From Escherichia coli (GTDB lineage: Bacteria > Pseudomonadota > Gammaproteobacteria > Enterobacterales > Enterobacteriaceae): 64,000 nt of DNA. Where the stretch lies: assembly GCF_013315695.1 (NCBI RefSeq), contig NZ_CP054353.1, one strand, 5' to 3'. The notes beneath the pieces are model-generated. The model searched no databases and was not told where the DNA came from. It saw only the letters and a list, made by a program, of their open reading frames with translations. Of the stretch, positions 8,141-32,686 are shown piece after piece. Each line of letters starts with the position of its first letter. The first letter of the stretch is position 1. The translations under genes were made by a program, and so were the position numbers.

Positions 8141-8711
8141 TTATGCGTTCTGAAAAGTCCCCTTTGATGGAGATTCAGGCCATACCAGCGCATTATAACA
8201 ATCTTTATTCATCACGGAAGTGAACGTCAACTGCTGAAGTTCCCTAATATATTCAATCCACGTAGCCAACCTTCCCTTGTCTGCATTGCTGATGGTGCCG
8301 GGCAATAACTCAGATTGCCAGATTCTGATCCTCTCTTTTGCCTCCGGCAGCAGGGGATTTCGTTGTCATTCTGCTTTAGCCTGCCACTTTTCAGGTGGCA
8401 GCACATGACGAACAATATTTTCATCATCAAATATCCAGTTACCTGAGTCATCAGCACGTTGGTTAGCGTTAATATCAGAAGTATTAACAACACTAAAACC
8501 GACATGATTAAGTGTTGATGCCTCTCTGGTAATGGTGACAATAATATTATTTCGTTGTAAATCATTTTGATTTTATCTGGTCGAAAGGTCCCTGCTTCGT
8601 TATGTCAGTTTTATCGCCTTCAGAGGAAACCAGATTACTTTGTGCTTCTTTTTCTAACACATACAGTCCCGGAGTTAATATTGCCTGTTTTATGTTCTTG
8701 AGTGCATCATA
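8141..8711 (-). pseudogene. G: Decayed tail fibre assembly gene G (frameshifted, with an early in-frame stop)
   Basis: Minus-strand translations in two frames give NNIIVTITREASTLNHVGFSVVNTSDINANQRADDSGNWIFDDENIV and ...ADKGRLATWIEYIRELQQL...VWPESP, resembling P2 gpG; the N-terminal part reads MMHSRT-stop. Confidence 0.6.
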
Positions 8712-25905: not shown

Positions 25906-28713
25906 GTTTCCACTGGTCAGGCTACCCCGCAGCAGGTCTGCTTTGCGGCGGGCGCGTTCAGTGGTTTCACTGATTCTCTGTGCGTGCTCTGCGTCACGGA
26001 TGGCGTGCAGCATGTCAGAAAGCACGGTAACAGGGGTTTTCATGGTGTTCTGGTCCTGCTGAAGTGTGGATGCCAGGCGTGCGGCGGCTTCGGGGTCTGA
26101 TGCCCCCAGCTGTTCCAGATAGCTGGCGACCGGGTTATGGCGGATCTCCGTGCTGCTTACGCCGTGATTACGGCTCAGGCGCTGCCAGAGCTGCGTGATT
26201 CGGCTGTCCGGGCGGGTATCCGGTTTGCGTACAATTTCAAATCCCTGCGGTGCAATGATGCTGCCGTCAACGTACAGACTGCCGCCCCGTAACAGGTGCT
26301 GCATCTGCTGTTCACCAATATGCAGGCCGAGAGATTCAGCAGACTCCCGCCATTCTTTTGCGAGTAACTCGTGGTTATCAGGCAAAGGCTGTGGCTGTTT
26401 GCGGCTCTGTGTCCAGCTCTGCATTTCATAACTGCTGTTTTTGGCCTGTTTGTCACGCAGCGAACGCATCAGCGCCCGGCGTTCGTGCCGTTTCAGTGAG
26501 CGCATCCATTCATTCACTTCAATTTCAATGCCGTCAGGAAGCTGCGGCCACTGTGCTGGCCGTTCTTCCGGCTGTTCTGTCCCGTTGTTGTCCGTTTCCT
26601 GTACACGGGGACAGTTATTGCCACGAGTCCAAGGGGCGGCAGGGCCGCCCTGAAGGTCAAAACCATTTTCGCGGGCGCTGTCTTCCGCTTCCGGTTTGCG
26701 TCTTACCAGCTTCCAGTTATCCGGATGCGTGCATACGCGGGAAGACTCCCCAATGAGCGGCGACCAGATCCCGTAAATCTGTACGCTCTGTTCACCGTAA
26801 TCGTTCAGCTCATCTGCGAGGTCGTAGGCGGTGCGAATCAGGTAGTCTTTGCGTGGAACAAGTACGCCACCCTGTTTCTCAATGTAGGTGGCAAAACATC
26901 CGGCATCAGCGGCAGCGAGTACCGCGTCCATTGCGTCATCCTTCAGCCGTTGCGGGCCTTCCGGGTTGCGTGCCATCTGGCTGGCAAGGCGGCGCAGTTC
27001 ACGCCACACCTGACGGGAGGGGATACCAAAGAACTGGAACTGGCGGACCCGGTGAAGGCGCGCCCAGCCGATGGCGCGTTCCACGCTCTCGGCCATTGAT
27101 TTTCCGGTTTCGTGGTCAACGCGTGGCTTGCCCGTTTTCGGGTCGATGCCATCCACGGCGCGGCTGTCCAGGTTCTTTCCGATGTAGGTGGCGATGTAGC
27201 TGGTTGGTGTGCCTTTTGAGCCGTCTACGTACTCCGCCTTAAAACGCGGAGTTATGTCATCGCCCAGCTCGTGGCGGTCTTCCTGAATGGCAATATCGCA
27301 GACGTGGGACACGATGGTTTCAATCTCGTCCTGATGTGCAAAGACCATCATATGCCAGTGCACAGTGCCGTCATGGTGAGGCTCCACCGTGCGGATGCCA
27401 TACCAGCGCAGACCGTCGCGGTTCAGTTTTTTGCGGACCGCCGCAAAAAACGTGTTAACCAGGTAATCGCTGGAGTCGCGCATGGTGGCCCCGTTCCATT
27501 TGGGATTCGGATGACCGTTCTCCGTTGTTGCGTGGTATTTTGACGGGCAGGTGACAGTCAGAAACACCGCTCTGTCGCCACGGGCTTCGGCCAGAAGTTC
27601 CAGTCCCTTCATGGTGGCCATCATTTCTGCCTTACGGTGAACCGGGTTACTTACTCCCGCGTAATACACTGTCTCGAGATCAATCGTGAACCCGTCTTCG
27701 TTTTCCAGCATGAAACTTTTCAGGAAATCGCGTGTTTTCTCGCGCTGTGCGCGAAACTCGCTTAACGCGTCCTGGCTCAGATAGGGTGATGTTTTTCTGG
27801 AAACCAGACAGGCGGCGCGGAGTTGTTCTTCTCTCCACTCGCAACGTAACAGCCACAGTTTGCGTTTCCACCATTCCGCACAGGTCAGGCGAAGGATTGC
27901 GCCCGGCAGCAGCTCCGTGTCCGGTTCGTTCCTCCGGTCTTTGTCTGTTGTCAGTGCGTCATAATGTGGAGGCATGGCGTGCAGGTGTAACGCCATGCGG
28001 GCCAGCATCTGATACGCCTTCAGCGTTACATCCATGGTCAGTTCGCCATCAGTCGCACCAAAGCCATCGCAGAGTTTTTCGAAGGTGCTGCTGAACATCG
28101 CCGCCGTCATGGTGGCCAGCGTCTGTATCTGGTGTTTGTTGAGCTGCGGCAGGTAAAGCAAATCGTCCAGGCGTTCGCGTCCGGCAAGGGAGCGATAACC
28201 CGGTGTCAGCCAGCGGTGATCGGTGCGGTCCAGGCGTTCGAATATTTTGCGCAGGGTTCCGCGCGCGTAGCGTTCAGCCTGCCAGCTCTTTTTGCCTTTC
28301 TGGCGATCGGCTTCCTGTTTTTTGCGCAGGAAAGAGAGGTGGCGGCTCAGAGGTTCACGCAGATAAACGGGAAGCACCTTCAGTGTGGCAAAAGCACGGG
28401 CCACCGGGTCTTGTTCTGTTGCCTGACGCTTGCTGATGATGCTTTGTGCCAGCTTTTCACGCTGTCCGGCTTCCTCAAGGGATGCCATGAGTTTTTTACC
28501 CACGGTGGATTGTGCGAAAAAGGCTTCCTCCTTCGCTTCCTGTTCTTCCAGAGCCTTTTTGTCTGCCTCAAGGTAGTAACGGATGGCGCGTTGTAGGTCG
28601 GTTTCAGTTTCCTGCCTGTGCTCCGTAAATCTGGCCGGATCAATGGCTGGCCGTGGTTCATTCCAGCTCCATGCAAACTCACTCATGGCTGGTATCCCGT
28701 CACGCGCTGCCAC
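25840..28713 (-). CDS. A: Rolling-circle replication initiator A
   Basis: Contains HUH-like VHWHMMVF and a YIATYIGKN Tyr-containing motif; position as P2 gene A; true start may be the ATG at 28686. Confidence 0.85.
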   Translation of the reverse strand: MAARDGIPAMSEFAWSWNEPRPAIDPARFTEHRQETETDLQRAIRYYLEADKKALEEQEAKEEAFFAQSTVGKKLMASLEEAGQREKLAQSIISKRQATEQDPVARAFATLKVLPVYLREPLSRHLSFLRKKQEADRQKGKKSWQAERYARGTLRKIFERLDRTDHRWLTPGYRSLAGRERLDDLLYLPQLNKHQIQTLATMTAAMFSSTFEKLCDGFGATDGELTMDVTLKAYQMLARMALHLHAMPPHYDALTTDKDRRNEPDTELLPGAILRLTCAEWWKRKLWLLRCEWREEQLRAACLVSRKTSPYLSQDALSEFRAQREKTRDFLKSFMLENEDGFTIDLETVYYAGVSNPVHRKAEMMATMKGLELLAEARGDRAVFLTVTCPSKYHATTENGHPNPKWNGATMRDSSDYLVNTFFAAVRKKLNRDGLRWYGIRTVEPHHDGTVHWHMMVFAHQDEIETIVSHVCDIAIQEDRHELGDDITPRFKAEYVDGSKGTPTSYIATYIGKNLDSRAVDGIDPKTGKPRVDHETGKSMAESVERAIGWARLHRVRQFQFFGIPSRQVWRELRRLASQMARNPEGPQRLKDDAMDAVLAAADAGCFATYIEKQGGVLVPRKDYLIRTAYDLADELNDYGEQSVQIYGIWSPLIGESSRVCTHPDNWKLVRRKPEAEDSARENGFDLQGGPAAPWTRGNNCPRVQETDNNGTEQPEERPAQWPQLPDGIEIEVNEWMRSLKRHERRALMRSLRDKQAKNSSYEMQSWTQSRKQPQPLPDNHELLAKEWRESAESLGLHIGEQQMQHLLRGGSLYVDGSIIAPQGFEIVRKPDTRPDSRITQLWQRLSRNHGVSSTEIRHNPVASYLEQLGASDPEAAARLASTLQQDQNTMKTPVTVLSDMLHAIRDAEHAQRISETTERARRKADLLRGSLTSGNKKQTETGFTNPVNEQKTCRDI

Positions 28714-29072
28714 TCCTGCGAGAAGAGGGCAGAAAGGCGGTTAAATTCAGCGGTGTATTCACTCAGCGAGGCACACCCGCCAGCAGTGCGATGCGCCAGC
28801 ATTGCCGCAAATACGGAGGCCGGGGAGTCGTAATACGCCAGCAGTGATTCTCCGTGTGGTGTCAGGCAATGCAACGCCAGCCCGTGTGGTGTGAAGTCCA
28901 CGCGGTAGCAGTCGTCTACTGTGAAATAAAGGGTGTCTGCATTTTCCGGTTTTGTGGTGCGTGCTCTGTTGTCACGACCACGGATGTAGAGATCAAATAA
29001 TCCCTGAAGAACGGGAGCCAGACGGGTGTCCTGTGTGCGCACCCATCTTGTGAAGTCATGAGCGTCAATCAT
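28683..29072 (-). CDS. Hypothetical early protein
   Basis: 129-aa ORF directly upstream of and slightly overlapping A. Confidence 0.5.
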   Translation of the reverse strand: MIDAHDFTRWVRTQDTRLAPVLQGLFDLYIRGRDNRARTTKPENADTLYFTVDDCYRVDFTPHGLALHCLTPHGESLLAYYDSPASVFAAMLAHRTAGGCASLSEYTAEFNRLSALFSQEWQRVTGYQP

Positions 29073-29144
29073 GCTGCAATTCTCTTTACTACAGATGTGC
29101 GAAGGCCTCCCGCCGCAAGGTGCAGGAAAGGCCCGGAACAGGAA

Positions 29145-29375
29145 TTAATGGAGTTTGTTTTGCTGCTGGAAGAGTTGTTGCAGCTCGCGCAGATCATCCG
29201 CCAGATAGCTGAAAACAGAGGCGGAATAGATGTTCGATAGCGCGTGGCTGCGCTCATGCAGCATATTGATGTGCATGATTTGCGCGACGCGTGATGCGCG
29301 GAAAAGTCTACGGTTGATTTCAGTCTGGATGTGACGACGCGCAGCGTATGCGCGCTGTTGTTTGCGGTTTGCCAT
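29145..29375 (-). CDS. Hypothetical basic 76-aa early protein
   Basis: ATG 29375 preceded by AAGAGG RBS; MANRKQQRAYAARRH... Confidence 0.55.
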   Translation of the reverse strand: MANRKQQRAYAARRHIQTEINRRLFRASRVAQIMHINMLHERSHALSNIYSASVFSYLADDLRELQQLFQQQNKLH

Positions 29376-29697
29376 GGTGTGGCCTCTTTGCTCGGTGATA
29401 GAAATAGCTCACCATCCAGAGTTGAGAATCTCGGGGTGGCGAGACGTACAGGGTTCTCAACACCGGAGAGCAAAGAATCCGGCCCGACCGAAGTCGGCCC
29501 CGTACGTCCCGCCATAATTCTGACGCGAAAAAGACGTGGCAATACAGTACGCACAAAAAAACCGCTGGCGCGGTTATGCGCTTTGCTCTGTATCGGGTTG
29601 AGAATCCCGGCACCCGTTTTATGAGGTGCAGCGGAAATGTAACCTGACCGATTGCGGCATGGCAAGCGGTTTTTTTGTGTGTGCATGTTCTGGTTTC

Positions 29698-29997
29698 TTA
29701 CTGGTTCAGAAAAAAATCAAAAACCTTGTCAATGCGTTGCAGCAGCTCTTGCTGTATTGCTTCCGGCGTTTCCGGTTCGCCGGGTGCCTCCAACGTCGCG
29801 CAGAAATCAGCGATTTCATGATGGAGTGTCAGGCGAATGGCAGGAGCCGTGGTTCTGGCGTGCTCCAGCTGATCCAGCAGTGCCAGCACAGCAGACGGCG
29901 AGAGCATTGCGCGAAATGCCAGTAATTTTTGAGGCGTTGCCATTCGTTGCAGGGCAAATGCCAGTTCGCGTAGCTTCTGGTGGTTGATGGTGCTCAT
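29698..29997 (-). CDS. Hypothetical early protein
   Basis: 99-aa ORF, stop overlaps the start of the downstream ORF. Confidence 0.55.
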   Translation of the reverse strand: MSTINHQKLRELAFALQRMATPQKLLAFRAMLSPSAVLALLDQLEHARTTAPAIRLTLHHEIADFCATLEAPGEPETPEAIQQELLQRIDKVFDFFLNQ

Positions 29998-30260
29998 GTT
30001 CTGGCTTCCTTCAGTAGCTGGTTAAACATGTGAGTAAGTGGATTGCTACACCCGAACGGCATCGGGTTTACGTGGTAAGAAGCCTGGCCTCCAGTTTTGC
30101 GAGCGCGACCACCTGTGCTGCGGTTTGTTCTGATGACTAAGCCGCCGCGCCAAAGTTGGCGTAACTCAGCATTAATGGCTGTGGTTGGAGTATTCAGTGC
30201 TGCGGCGATCTCTCCGCCGCTACAACCCGGATGAGTAGCGATGTAGTCCAGAATGGTCAT
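29994..30260 (-). CDS. Hypothetical early protein
   Basis: 88-aa ORF, overlapping start/stop with neighbours. Confidence 0.55.
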   Translation of the reverse strand: MTILDYIATHPGCSGGEIAAALNTPTTAINAELRQLWRGGLVIRTNRSTGGRARKTGGQASYHVNPMPFGCSNPLTHMFNQLLKEART

Positions 30261-32377: not shown

Positions 32378-32686
32378 ATGCTTATCGGTGAAAAAATTAG
32401 AGTGATTCGTGAATCAGAGGATTTAACGCGCGAAGAATTTTGCGGCCTGATTGATGTGCCTATCGGCACTTTGCGTCGTTATGAAACGGGGCGGATTGAA
32501 AACATAGGGGGCGAAGTGCTTATCAAGATTGTTAATCACCCTCGCTTTTTTAAGTACATGAATTGGCTTATGACGGGAAAAACAAATGAGGCTGCTGGGC
32601 AGATCAGTCCGTCTCTCTCCCCTGATGGGCCAAAAAGCACATCGCCTTCTCAAAAACCCCGCAAGACTGGCACACAGCCCGGCTAA
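32378..32686 (+). CDS. C: Immunity repressor C
   Basis: MLIGEKIRVIRESEDLTREEF...GTLRRYETGR...HPRFFKYMNWLMTGK resembles P2 C repressor. Confidence 0.7.
   Translation: MLIGEKIRVIRESEDLTREEFCGLIDVPIGTLRRYETGRIENIGGEVLIKIVNHPRFFKYMNWLMTGKTNEAAGQISPSLSPDGPKSTSPSQKPRKTGTQPG

Follow-up and report, generated by a model that had tools for sequence, protein, structure and literature searches.

Two predicted small RNA genes in the early operon of a P2-like prophage

We analyzed a stretch of 64,000 nucleotides of Escherichia coli DNA (RefSeq assembly GCF_013315695.1, contig NZ_CP054353.1; in the following called the window) and focused on a segment of about 320 bp (29376..29697) in the early operon of a P2-like prophage. 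The segment contains predicted genes for two small RNAs (sRNAs), IsrK and C4, and is followed by a gene with similarity to the derepression gene epsilon of phage P4. The closest phages are P88-like Peduoviridae (Xuanwuvirus) with ~88% identity over the segment, and a 1.7-kb stretch around it was matched in 1,424 of 5,426 complete E. coli genomes. The segment is bounded by the stop codon of an open reading frame (ORF) of 99 aa (29698) and the ATG of an ORF of 76 aa (29375), both on the minus strand; an earlier note made from the sequence without database searches (in the following called the original prediction) had likewise placed it between two early ORFs. Its description there as non-coding needs to be qualified, however, because a frame of 205 codons, which is open in relatives, runs through it.

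The starting point was a composite motif reported in three copies, the middle one inverted. The pattern CTTTGCTC-N(5-35)-GTTGAGAA indeed matches exactly three times in the window (expected 0.00 from 100 dinucleotide shuffles), and all three matches lie within the segment. The component 8-mers CTTTGCTC and GTTGAGAA occur singly 7 and 5 times across the whole window; it is therefore their co-location that is non-random, and not the 8-mers alone. The coordinates originally given for copies 1 and 2 were correct, while copy 3 spans 29581..29606 instead of 29585..29605.

Searching the window with the Rfam covariance models yielded just two matches above the gathering score, both full length and both within the segment. 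The first is isrK (RF01394; model positions 1-77 of 77, 62.8 bits against a gathering score of 50), followed at a distance of 35 nt by C4 (RF01695; model positions 1-87 of 87, 79.1 bits against 45). Two sub-threshold matches, CRISPR-DR33 (21.7 bits, gathering 39) and STnc410 (17.5 bits, gathering 50), were treated as chance. The minimum free energy (MFE) structure of C4 (-48.2 kcal/mol, z -5.2) equals the consensus, and none of 200 shuffled sequences was equally stable; the IsrK fold has a z of -3.1. Compensatory changes were found in 16 of the 27 consensus pairs of C4 (12 diverse phages) and in 7 of the 15 consensus pairs of IsrK (12 diverse loci). Small RNA, attenuator and protein-binding array had been offered as possible functions. 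The two Rfam matches bear out the first and, in substance, the intrinsic terminator within the early operon bears out the second: a terminator-like hairpin had been predicted on the minus strand, and it was recovered as a stem at 29575..29560 followed by U7. The third found no support, as set out below. Further terminator-like calls inside C4 (29492..29478) and at 29338-29354 and 29371-29383 (+) fall within C4 hairpins or the coding start and were discarded.

C4 has a conserved 5′ leader, AAUUAU, and the 3′ end GCC-ACC. These sequences hint at excision of C4 from a longer transcript, with RNase P generating its 5′ end.

Table 1 Features of the segment and its surroundings. Positions refer to the window unless another locus is named; boxes are named after the P1 GenBank record and their sequences are read on the minus strand.
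Feature	Position	Strand	Details
Composite motif matches	29386-29428, 29454-29475, 29581-29604	+, -, +	pattern search, 64-kb window
Candidate promoter PisrK	29636..29665	-	-35 TTGCCA (29665..29660), 18-nt spacer, -10 TACATT (29641..29636); promoter scan
Inverted repeat CCGCTTGC-CATGCC-GCAATCGG	29646..29682	.	overlaps the -35; preceded by an A7 run; hairpin 29646-29671
IsrK / P4 seqA-type sRNA	29555..29629	-	75 nt; two 5′ hairpins and intrinsic terminator
C4 / P4 CI-type antisense RNA	29432..29519	-	88 nt; 17-bp closing stem, two internal hairpins
Box a1	29604..29597	-	UUCUCAAC; loop of IsrK hairpin 2; copy 3
Box b1	29589..29581	-	AGAGCAAAG; in IsrK; copy 3
Box b′	29475..29468	-	CUUUGCUC; loop of C4 hairpin 2; copy 2
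Box a′	29461..29454	-	GUUGAGAA; unpaired joint of C4; copy 2
Box a2	29430..29421	-	(GA)UUCUCAAC; directly after C4 (box proper starts 2 nt past C4); copy 1
Box b2	29393..29385	-	GAGCAAAGA; overlaps Shine-Dalgarno sequence AAGAGG (29388..29383); copy 1
Downstream target a2/b2	29383..29430	-	small hairpin between a2 and b2; ATG at 29375, 7 nt past the Shine-Dalgarno sequence
205-codon open frame	29069..29686	-	spans promoter, IsrK, C4, a2/b2 and the epsilon-like gene (different frame)
P4 epsilon-like derepression (antirepressor) protein gene	29145..29375	-	76 aa; first gene with its ribosome binding site under C4 target b2
129-aa gene (phrog_3237)	28683..29072	-	function unassigned; ATGA overlap with the spanning frame; followed by gene A
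Replication nickase gpA (gene A)	25840..28713	-	Pfam Phage_GPA
Immunity repressor, P2 C type	32378..32686	+	phmmer against PDB: 2l49/2xcj "C protein", E 2.5e-15, full length; Pfam HTH_3
Ead/Ea22-like protein gene	29698-29997	-	99 aa (weak match); immediately upstream of the cassette
MarR-type winged-helix protein gene	29994-30260	-	88 aa
Protein coding sequences annotated over the RNA genes	29069-29686 (window); 1512-2129 (L004, 705R2); 413-715 (L008, N15); 8168-8584 (L002)	- (window)	

A candidate internal promoter upstream of IsrK

The -10 element of the candidate promoter PisrK ends 6 nt before the 5′ end of IsrK. A -10-like hexamer ending exactly 6 nt before the isrK match was present in all 14 loci compared, as was the tandem order isrK-C4. 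In P4, this hexamer can be equated with PLE. The corresponding hexamer of P1 is the annotated promoter P1c4/P51b (GenBank). Among 43 unique P88-like sequences, the PisrK region is nearly invariant. We rejected a second promoter-like site before C4 (29542..29514), the "-10" of which is the conserved AAUUAU leader of C4, while its "-35" is unconserved in a Citrobacter relative and in other phages.

All P88-like loci carry the inverted repeat over the -35 without any change, whereas the cassettes of lambdoid phages, P1, N15 and P4 lack it. Read on the plus strand, it resembles a terminator hairpin followed by T7, and 21 nt of it (29662..29682) are 90% complementary to the 3′ arm and U-tract of the IsrK terminator (29549..29569). 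It may act as an operator, may hinder antisense transcription or may pair over a long range within transcripts from the early promoter (Pe).

Pairing boxes of C4 match two target sites and vary coordinately

The three motif copies resolve into three pairs of short boxes, one in IsrK (a1, b1), one in C4 (b′, a′) and one between C4 and the 76-aa ORF (a2, b2). Perfect complements of 8-9 nt exist between the C4 boxes and all four target boxes, the boxes of C4 are in antiparallel order relative to both targets, which is needed for RNA pairing, and the spacing of the half-boxes differs among the three copies (27, 6 and 8 nt). In the MFE fold of the full leader, the C4 boxes pair with a2/b2 in cis, which agrees with the suggestion in the original prediction that copies 1 and 2 form a long imperfect hairpin. 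The b box ends in the purines of the Shine-Dalgarno (SD) sequence in every relative compared.

To compare the loci, we used explicit box matching in place of RNAduplex energies between C4 cores and targets, which were inflated by stem-stem pairing. Across the 14 diverse loci, the complementarity between cognate boxes averaged 14.5-16 nt, against 8.5-9.5 nt for non-cognate boxes. We also assembled a set of close relatives consisting of 80 IMG/VR loci, the epsilon-like protein of which is at least 91% identical to the one in the window. In these loci, 6 a′ and 11 b′ variants are joined in 14 different box combinations, and nearly all loci carry perfect complements of 7-10 nt at the four targets. 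Cognate complementarity was 15.8 nt in this set, compared with 9.2 nt for non-cognate boxes, and none of 20,000 permutations reached the cognate value. According to the column entropy, only the six boxes vary, with hardly any change in promoter, terminator and stems. Coordinated variation of the boxes within an otherwise invariant sequence is the pattern expected of specificity determinants in antisense immunity, and it is hard to fit to a protein-binding array or a decayed gene. Judging from the characterized relatives, the hypervariable box sequences presumably determine specificity and define heteroimmune types.

Boxes are also shared between unrelated phages. The window shares its a′ box with N15, and the P88-like phage 705R2 shares its own with ASU11. 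Together with the varied combinations of a′ and b′ variants, this suggests an independent exchange of the two boxes. Between the C4 in the window and IsrK of VT2phi_272, a Shiga toxin (Stx) phage of a co-resident type, we found only ~6 nt of pairing, so cross-induction by VT2phi_272 is unsupported.

Some IMG/VR loci deviate from the common pattern. Two of them (L040 and L055), with the b′ box GTTCTGCGTTTG, match b1/b2 perfectly over no more than 4-6 nt; these box types may rely on pairings that contain G-U or may be partly mismatched, escaping variants. L029 has an aberrant C4 region in which two box-type patterns are mixed, with the spanning frame cut at 78 codons, and in L062 the spanning frame is cut at 74 codons and the a1 box is weakened. 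These two may be recombinant, decaying or mis-assembled copies.

The gene behind the C4 target resembles P4 epsilon

The 76-aa protein, the gene of which starts directly downstream of b2, matches the Pfam family Derepression (PF25738) with 31.5 bits (cut-off 27); P4 epsilon itself scores 170 bits on this family. In a pairwise comparison, the two proteins are 33% identical over 51 aa (E 4e-9), while a PDB search with the 76-aa protein returned nothing meaningful. Synonymous and non-synonymous changes numbered 308 and 209 in the epsilon frame, compared with 57 and 459 in the 205-codon frame and 81 and 381 in the third frame. The ratio in the epsilon frame shows purifying selection there. The presumed target of the epsilon-like protein is the P2 C-type repressor encoded on the opposite strand of the same prophage. 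For the 129-aa protein encoded further downstream, we detected neither similarity to ORF151 of P4 nor a recognizable antirepressor domain.

An open frame spans the cassette

The 205-codon frame begins with an ATG (29686) located 11 nt past the stop codon of the upstream ORF, 57 nt before the start of IsrK and upstream of the internal promoter, and its stop codon overlaps the ATG of the 129-aa gene in the sequence ATGA (29072..29069). In frame with it is a further AUG (29515), part of the conserved AAUUAUGG at the 5′ end of C4. Of the unique P88-like loci that have the first ATG, 45 of 47 keep the frame open. The Citrobacter phage, which differs by 125 substitutions but no indel, also keeps it open, an outcome reached in 6.5% of trials by random mutation and in 0.04% of shuffles. 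Across C4, its reading frame is that of P4 eta, and in this region it aligns with the spanning ORF of ASU11. Where it overlaps the epsilon-like gene, amino-acid constraint is absent, since its substitution counts are no better than those of the third frame. That the motifs might be explained by a decayed coding region, as the original prediction had considered, was not borne out; yet transcripts from upstream are probably translated in the frame that runs open through the segment, as happens with P4 eta.

Spanning frames occur in cassettes embedded in longer operons, namely those of the P88-like phages, ASU11, WGPS2, mEp460, ST64B and P4. None was found in the stand-alone cassettes of P1, N15, VT2phi_272, F004, PhiR12_3 and PhiR46_1. 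We infer that the frame would serve as a "pass-through" ORF, by which transcripts initiated at Pe ignore the cassette and translation is coupled into the 129-aa gene.

In the one RefSeq record inspected, no RNA gene is annotated at this locus, and some phage records annotate a protein instead. Protein coding sequences (CDSs) placed over the IsrK and C4 RNA genes carry names such as "hypothetical protein", "similar to ash family protein", "cA secondary immunity repressor" (N15) and "cI gene product" (P4). The Pfam family Phage_ASH (PF10554) matches translations of the same RNA region, with 59.7 bits for the P4 "cI" CDS and 54.8 bits for the long form of lambdoid Rha. Much of this family may therefore be a translated RNA gene.

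Comparison with known immunity systems

The Rfam models C4 and isrK are known to detect CI and seqA of P4 (PMC10111431). In our hands, the P4 immunity region scored 74.9 bits with C4 and 60.8 bits with isrK, and epsilon, orf151 and alpha follow downstream. The isrK-C4 tandem, with a gap of 24-35 nt (107 nt in P4), was also found in two P88-like phages, six lambdoid/Stx phages, the unclassified E. coli phage PhiR46_1 and N15. In P1, C4 is preceded by a leader that reaches 35 bits on isrK, which is sub-threshold, but passes the c4-a1b1 model. The early region of prototype P2, scanned as a negative control, contained neither C4 nor isrK.

The immI region of P1/P7 (promoters P51a/b, a1-b1, c4, a2-b2, icd, ant1/2), in which full repression of ant needs C4 (PMC8198154), agrees with the cassette in the order and spacing of its elements, including the -10-like hexamer that ends 6 nt before the a1/b1 leader. 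The loop and joint boxes of C4, the position of a2 abutting the 3′ end of C4, the specificity set by the box sequences (in the window, presumably) and the location of b2 at the ribosome binding site (RBS) of the first gene of the antirepressor operon (icd in P1, the epsilon-like gene in the window) are likewise shared. The two differ in their output, which is Icd/Ant aimed at C1 in P1 and the 76-aa epsilon-like protein, presumably aimed at the P2 C-type repressor, in the window. In addition, the leader in the window matches isrK and has a strong intrinsic terminator, in contrast to the 35-bit leader of P1; P1 has a stand-alone operon with no spanning frame, whereas the cassette in the window is spanned by a frame and forms part of a long early operon; and the window has no evident operator of the C1 type.

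The P4 region (PLE, seqA, CI RNA/seqB, seqC, nested eta/kil, epsilon, orf151, cnr, alpha) shares with the window the two Rfam models, a -35 of the form TTGCC(T/A) with an 18-nt spacer, and an epsilon-family gene followed by a replication gene downstream. Moreover, eta (214 aa) has its start ahead of the internal promoter, and the frame in which it reads C4 is that of the spanning ORF. When eta is translated from PLL transcripts, which start further upstream, termination in P4 is prevented (PMC10111431). The first controlled start in P4 is kil, nested in frame in eta, with epsilon ~250 nt later, whereas the epsilon-like start in the window is placed directly under b2 and out of frame with the spanning ORF. 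The gap between IsrK and CI is 107 nt in P4 compared with 35 nt in the window, and the replication gene is the alpha primase in P4 and a P2 gpA-type nickase in the window. Furthermore, P4 is a satellite whose epsilon attacks the repressor of its helper, while here a helper-type phage carries the module, the target of which would be the phage's own repressor.

In Gifsy-1 (isrK-orf45(STnc1160)-anrP), IsrK activates antirepressor translation and prophage induction; binding of IsrK to Hfq and its action in trans on its own read-through mRNA are known only for this prophage (PMC4825925). The nucleotide sequence of orf45 is conserved while its amino acids vary, its AUGA end lies on the antirepressor start, and it is needed for antirepressor translation (PMC4825925). 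Both systems have an IsrK sRNA (predicted in the window) and a frame over the downstream RNA with conserved nucleotides, variable amino acids and an AUGA end on the next gene; the read-through isoform, the processed stable RNA downstream and an antirepressor as output that induces the prophage would also be shared. Gifsy-1 is, however, lambdoid, with the antirepressor AnrP acting through AntQ, and its frame has 45 codons; the frame in the window has 148 when counted from the corresponding AUG and 205 when counted from the ATG upstream, and it shares part of its length with a second gene read in another frame. The published Gifsy-1 model invokes no a′/b′ boxes of the C4 type. The anti-immunity region of N15 (cA RNA, icd, antA/B), finally, has the isrK and C4 tandem and the identical a′ box (GUUGAGAA), but is a stand-alone operon with no spanning frame, has a different b′ box and begins with an icd-like gene.

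A probable secondary immunity cassette gating an epsilon homolog

Considering these data, we are rather confident that the segment is an RNA-based secondary immunity cassette of the type known from P1/P7 (immI c4), P4 (seqA-CI-seqC), N15 (cA) and Gifsy-1 (isrK-STnc1160), located in the early operon of a P2-like prophage. Most likely, its matching boxes keep the P4 epsilon-like antirepressor gene off. None of the components (RNA families, box logic, eta-type frame and epsilon) is new in itself, and the finding extends this established biology. What is new is the presence of a P4-like immunity and derepression cassette within a helper-type P2-like phage, where it would gate the phage's own epsilon homolog, as well as the documented extent of box diversification and the out-of-frame overlap between the spanning ORF and the epsilon-like gene.

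By analogy with these systems, the cassette may work as follows. In the lysogen, the internal promoter would produce IsrK and some read-through RNA, from which C4 would be cut (by RNase P in P1). C4 would then pair with a2/b2 and block translation of the epsilon-like antirepressor, so that the P2 C-type repressor stays active, and polarity resulting from the blocked translation would limit expression of the 129-aa gene and the replication gene A. Since IsrK carries the boxes of the mRNA target, it would compete for C4, and it may also refold the leader as in Gifsy-1. A rise of IsrK relative to C4 could thereby release synthesis of the epsilon-like protein, which would inactivate the resident C repressor and derepress the prophage. 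Transcripts from Pe, on the other hand, include the ATG of the 205-codon frame; translation through the terminator, C4 and a2/b2 would render early transcription insensitive to the cassette, similar to the effect of P4 eta on PLL transcripts.

Several points weigh against this interpretation. Every functional step assigned to the locus is transferred by homology, and sequence alone does not separate the translational mode of C4 action in P1 from the termination mode in P4. The epsilon-like assignment builds on the modest Pfam score given above. A tblastn search of phage genomes with the 76-aa protein reached only P88-like phages and not P4, so that recognizing the homology to epsilon needed the profile and the pairwise comparison. 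The internal promoter matches the consensus in only 9 of 12 positions and has an 18-nt spacer. As to the spanning frame, its openness has a pairwise chance level of ~6.5%, no SD sequence precedes its ATG at 29686, and it matches Phage_ASH (PF10554) with 19.3 bits, below the cut-off of 26; it is therefore not filed in this family and is treated as functionally analogous only. Finally, the surroundings of the cassette contain neither a LexA box nor another obvious input signal: a search of the window for CTGT-N8-ACAG with 1 mismatch yielded 23 matches compared with 19.6 expected, none of them by the cassette, and thus no evidence for direct SOS control.

Two alternatives assign different roles to the same RNAs. 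As in P4, C4 could bind both target pairs (a1/b1 and a2/b2) while the transcript is still being made, so that transcription ends early, either at the IsrK terminator or at a Rho site further downstream; this would make the segment an attenuator of the distal early operon (epsilon-like gene, 129-aa gene and gene A). The two Rfam models common to both loci, the location of the cassette upstream of a replication gene, the intrinsic terminator between a1/b1 and C4, and a spanning frame that starts upstream of the internal promoter like eta, whose translation prevents termination, are all in line with such a mode, and we regard it as possible, though not probable. A translational component is nevertheless indicated by b2, which overlaps the SD sequence as in P1 and ends in SD purines in every relative; besides, the two modes are not exclusive, because blocked translation leads to polarity in P1. 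Alternatively, IsrK could be the main player and a positive regulator, as in Gifsy-1. The leader would then be inactive in cis, in agreement with its MFE fold, in which the C4 boxes pair with a2/b2, and free IsrK would open the frame start at the AUG in AAUUAUGG. Ribosomes would reach the ATGA and switch on the 129-aa gene by coupling, making the 129-aa protein the output instead of, or besides, the epsilon-like protein. The spanning frame has the three properties of Gifsy-1 orf45 (conserved nucleotides, variable amino acids, AUGA end). However, the AUG at 29515 has no SD sequence before it, the 129-aa protein has no recognizable antirepressor domain, and the epsilon-like gene has its own SD sequence directly under b2. 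This alternative, too, seems possible but not probable.

Two further explanations do not invoke RNA pairing. One is that the segment is the 5′ half of a protein-coding gene, the product being the 205-aa protein recorded as "Ash family" or hypothetical, and that the repeats have no meaning of their own. We consider this very improbable: although the frame is open in almost all relatives, is annotated as a CDS in some GenBank records and shows a weak match to Phage_ASH, that match is below the cut-off, the two Rfam models score above gathering with covarying stems, and the variable sites are the six pairing boxes, which change coordinately. Furthermore, the frame shows no amino-acid constraint in the overlap with the epsilon-like gene (57 synonymous and 459 non-synonymous changes), and stand-alone cassettes (P1, N15 and several Stx phages) do without such a frame. 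It is even harder to view the three motif copies as operators of a DNA-binding protein, as would apply to the protein-binding array of the original prediction. The copies are repeated and closely spaced, one is inverted, and regulators are encoded nearby (the MarR-like protein and the C repressor). Still, the inverted middle copy falls into the unpaired loop and joint of a conserved, covarying RNA fold, the copies are complementary in antiparallel order and covary as partners, half-box spacings of 27, 6 and 8 nt suit flexible RNA pairing and not a fixed protein footprint, and 14 box types exist while the neighboring proteins stay nearly identical. An array of operators is, in our view, extremely improbable.

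Possible relevance for prophage induction

P2-type repressors have no self-cleavage domain, and the prototype P2 is non-inducible. In O157 Sakai, the P2-like prophage Sp13 has a gene similar to P4 epsilon and is mitomycin-inducible although its repressor lacks a peptidase motif, by a mechanism stated as yet to be elucidated (Asadulghani et al., PMC2669165). The prophage in the window looks more complete than Sp13 as described there. According to the literature, P88, likewise P2-like and with an epsilon homolog, is also chemically inducible. In the literature searched, we found no paper describing a C4/IsrK cassette on the RBS of an epsilon-like gene, and the supplement of an Hfq-CRAC paper on enterohemorrhagic E. 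coli, searched for an sRNA in Sp13, has no mention of one. A C4/IsrK switch on the RBS of the epsilon homolog offers a concrete, testable control point for induction and heteroimmunity in a widespread group of prophages. There is also a benefit for annotation, as the RNA genes are unannotated or overlaid by protein CDSs in the records.

As a speculation, which we ourselves consider unlikely, the seqA-CI-seqC-epsilon cassette of P4 might be a captured or shared copy of an induction switch that belongs to the helper-family phage. In prophages of the P88/Sp13 type, the epsilon homolog would then be a native antirepressor gated by C4 and IsrK, and the shuffled a and b boxes would act as RNA "barcodes" that decide which co-resident phages, satellites or superinfecting relatives sponge C4 and cross-induce. 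If true, this would explain how a P2-type prophage with a non-self-cleaving repressor can be inducible, as reported for Sp13 (PMC2669165).

Prophage context and neighboring genes

The prophage in the window appears complete and P2-like, with genes for sheath, tape measure, tail fiber, a P2-type capsid, the GPO scaffold, terminase, portal, a Cox-like protein and integrase. Upstream of the cassette, the early operon contains the genes for the MarR-type and the Ead/Ea22-like proteins. The Citrobacter relative has an extra gene for a DNA-binding protein of 183 aa between these two genes and the cassette.

In its longest frame, gpA has 957 aa compared with 761 aa in P2; its Phage_GPA domain is limited to residues 194-518, which leaves sizeable extensions at both the N and the C terminus. 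Between the portal gene and the gene for gpA lies a ParM/StbA plasmid-segregation gene, close to a DUF3800 gene and, in a RefSeq relative, to a neighbor annotated as "plasmid partitioning/stability"; the positions concerned are 24804-25763 (-) and downstream, and 23450-24256 (+). The ParM/StbA gene and its neighbors hint at a plasmid-like maintenance or moron module.

No tRNA gene was found anywhere in the window. The prophage appears to end just past the integrase gene (~33710), and host genes follow from 34306, beginning with the gene for a FecCD-family transporter permease.

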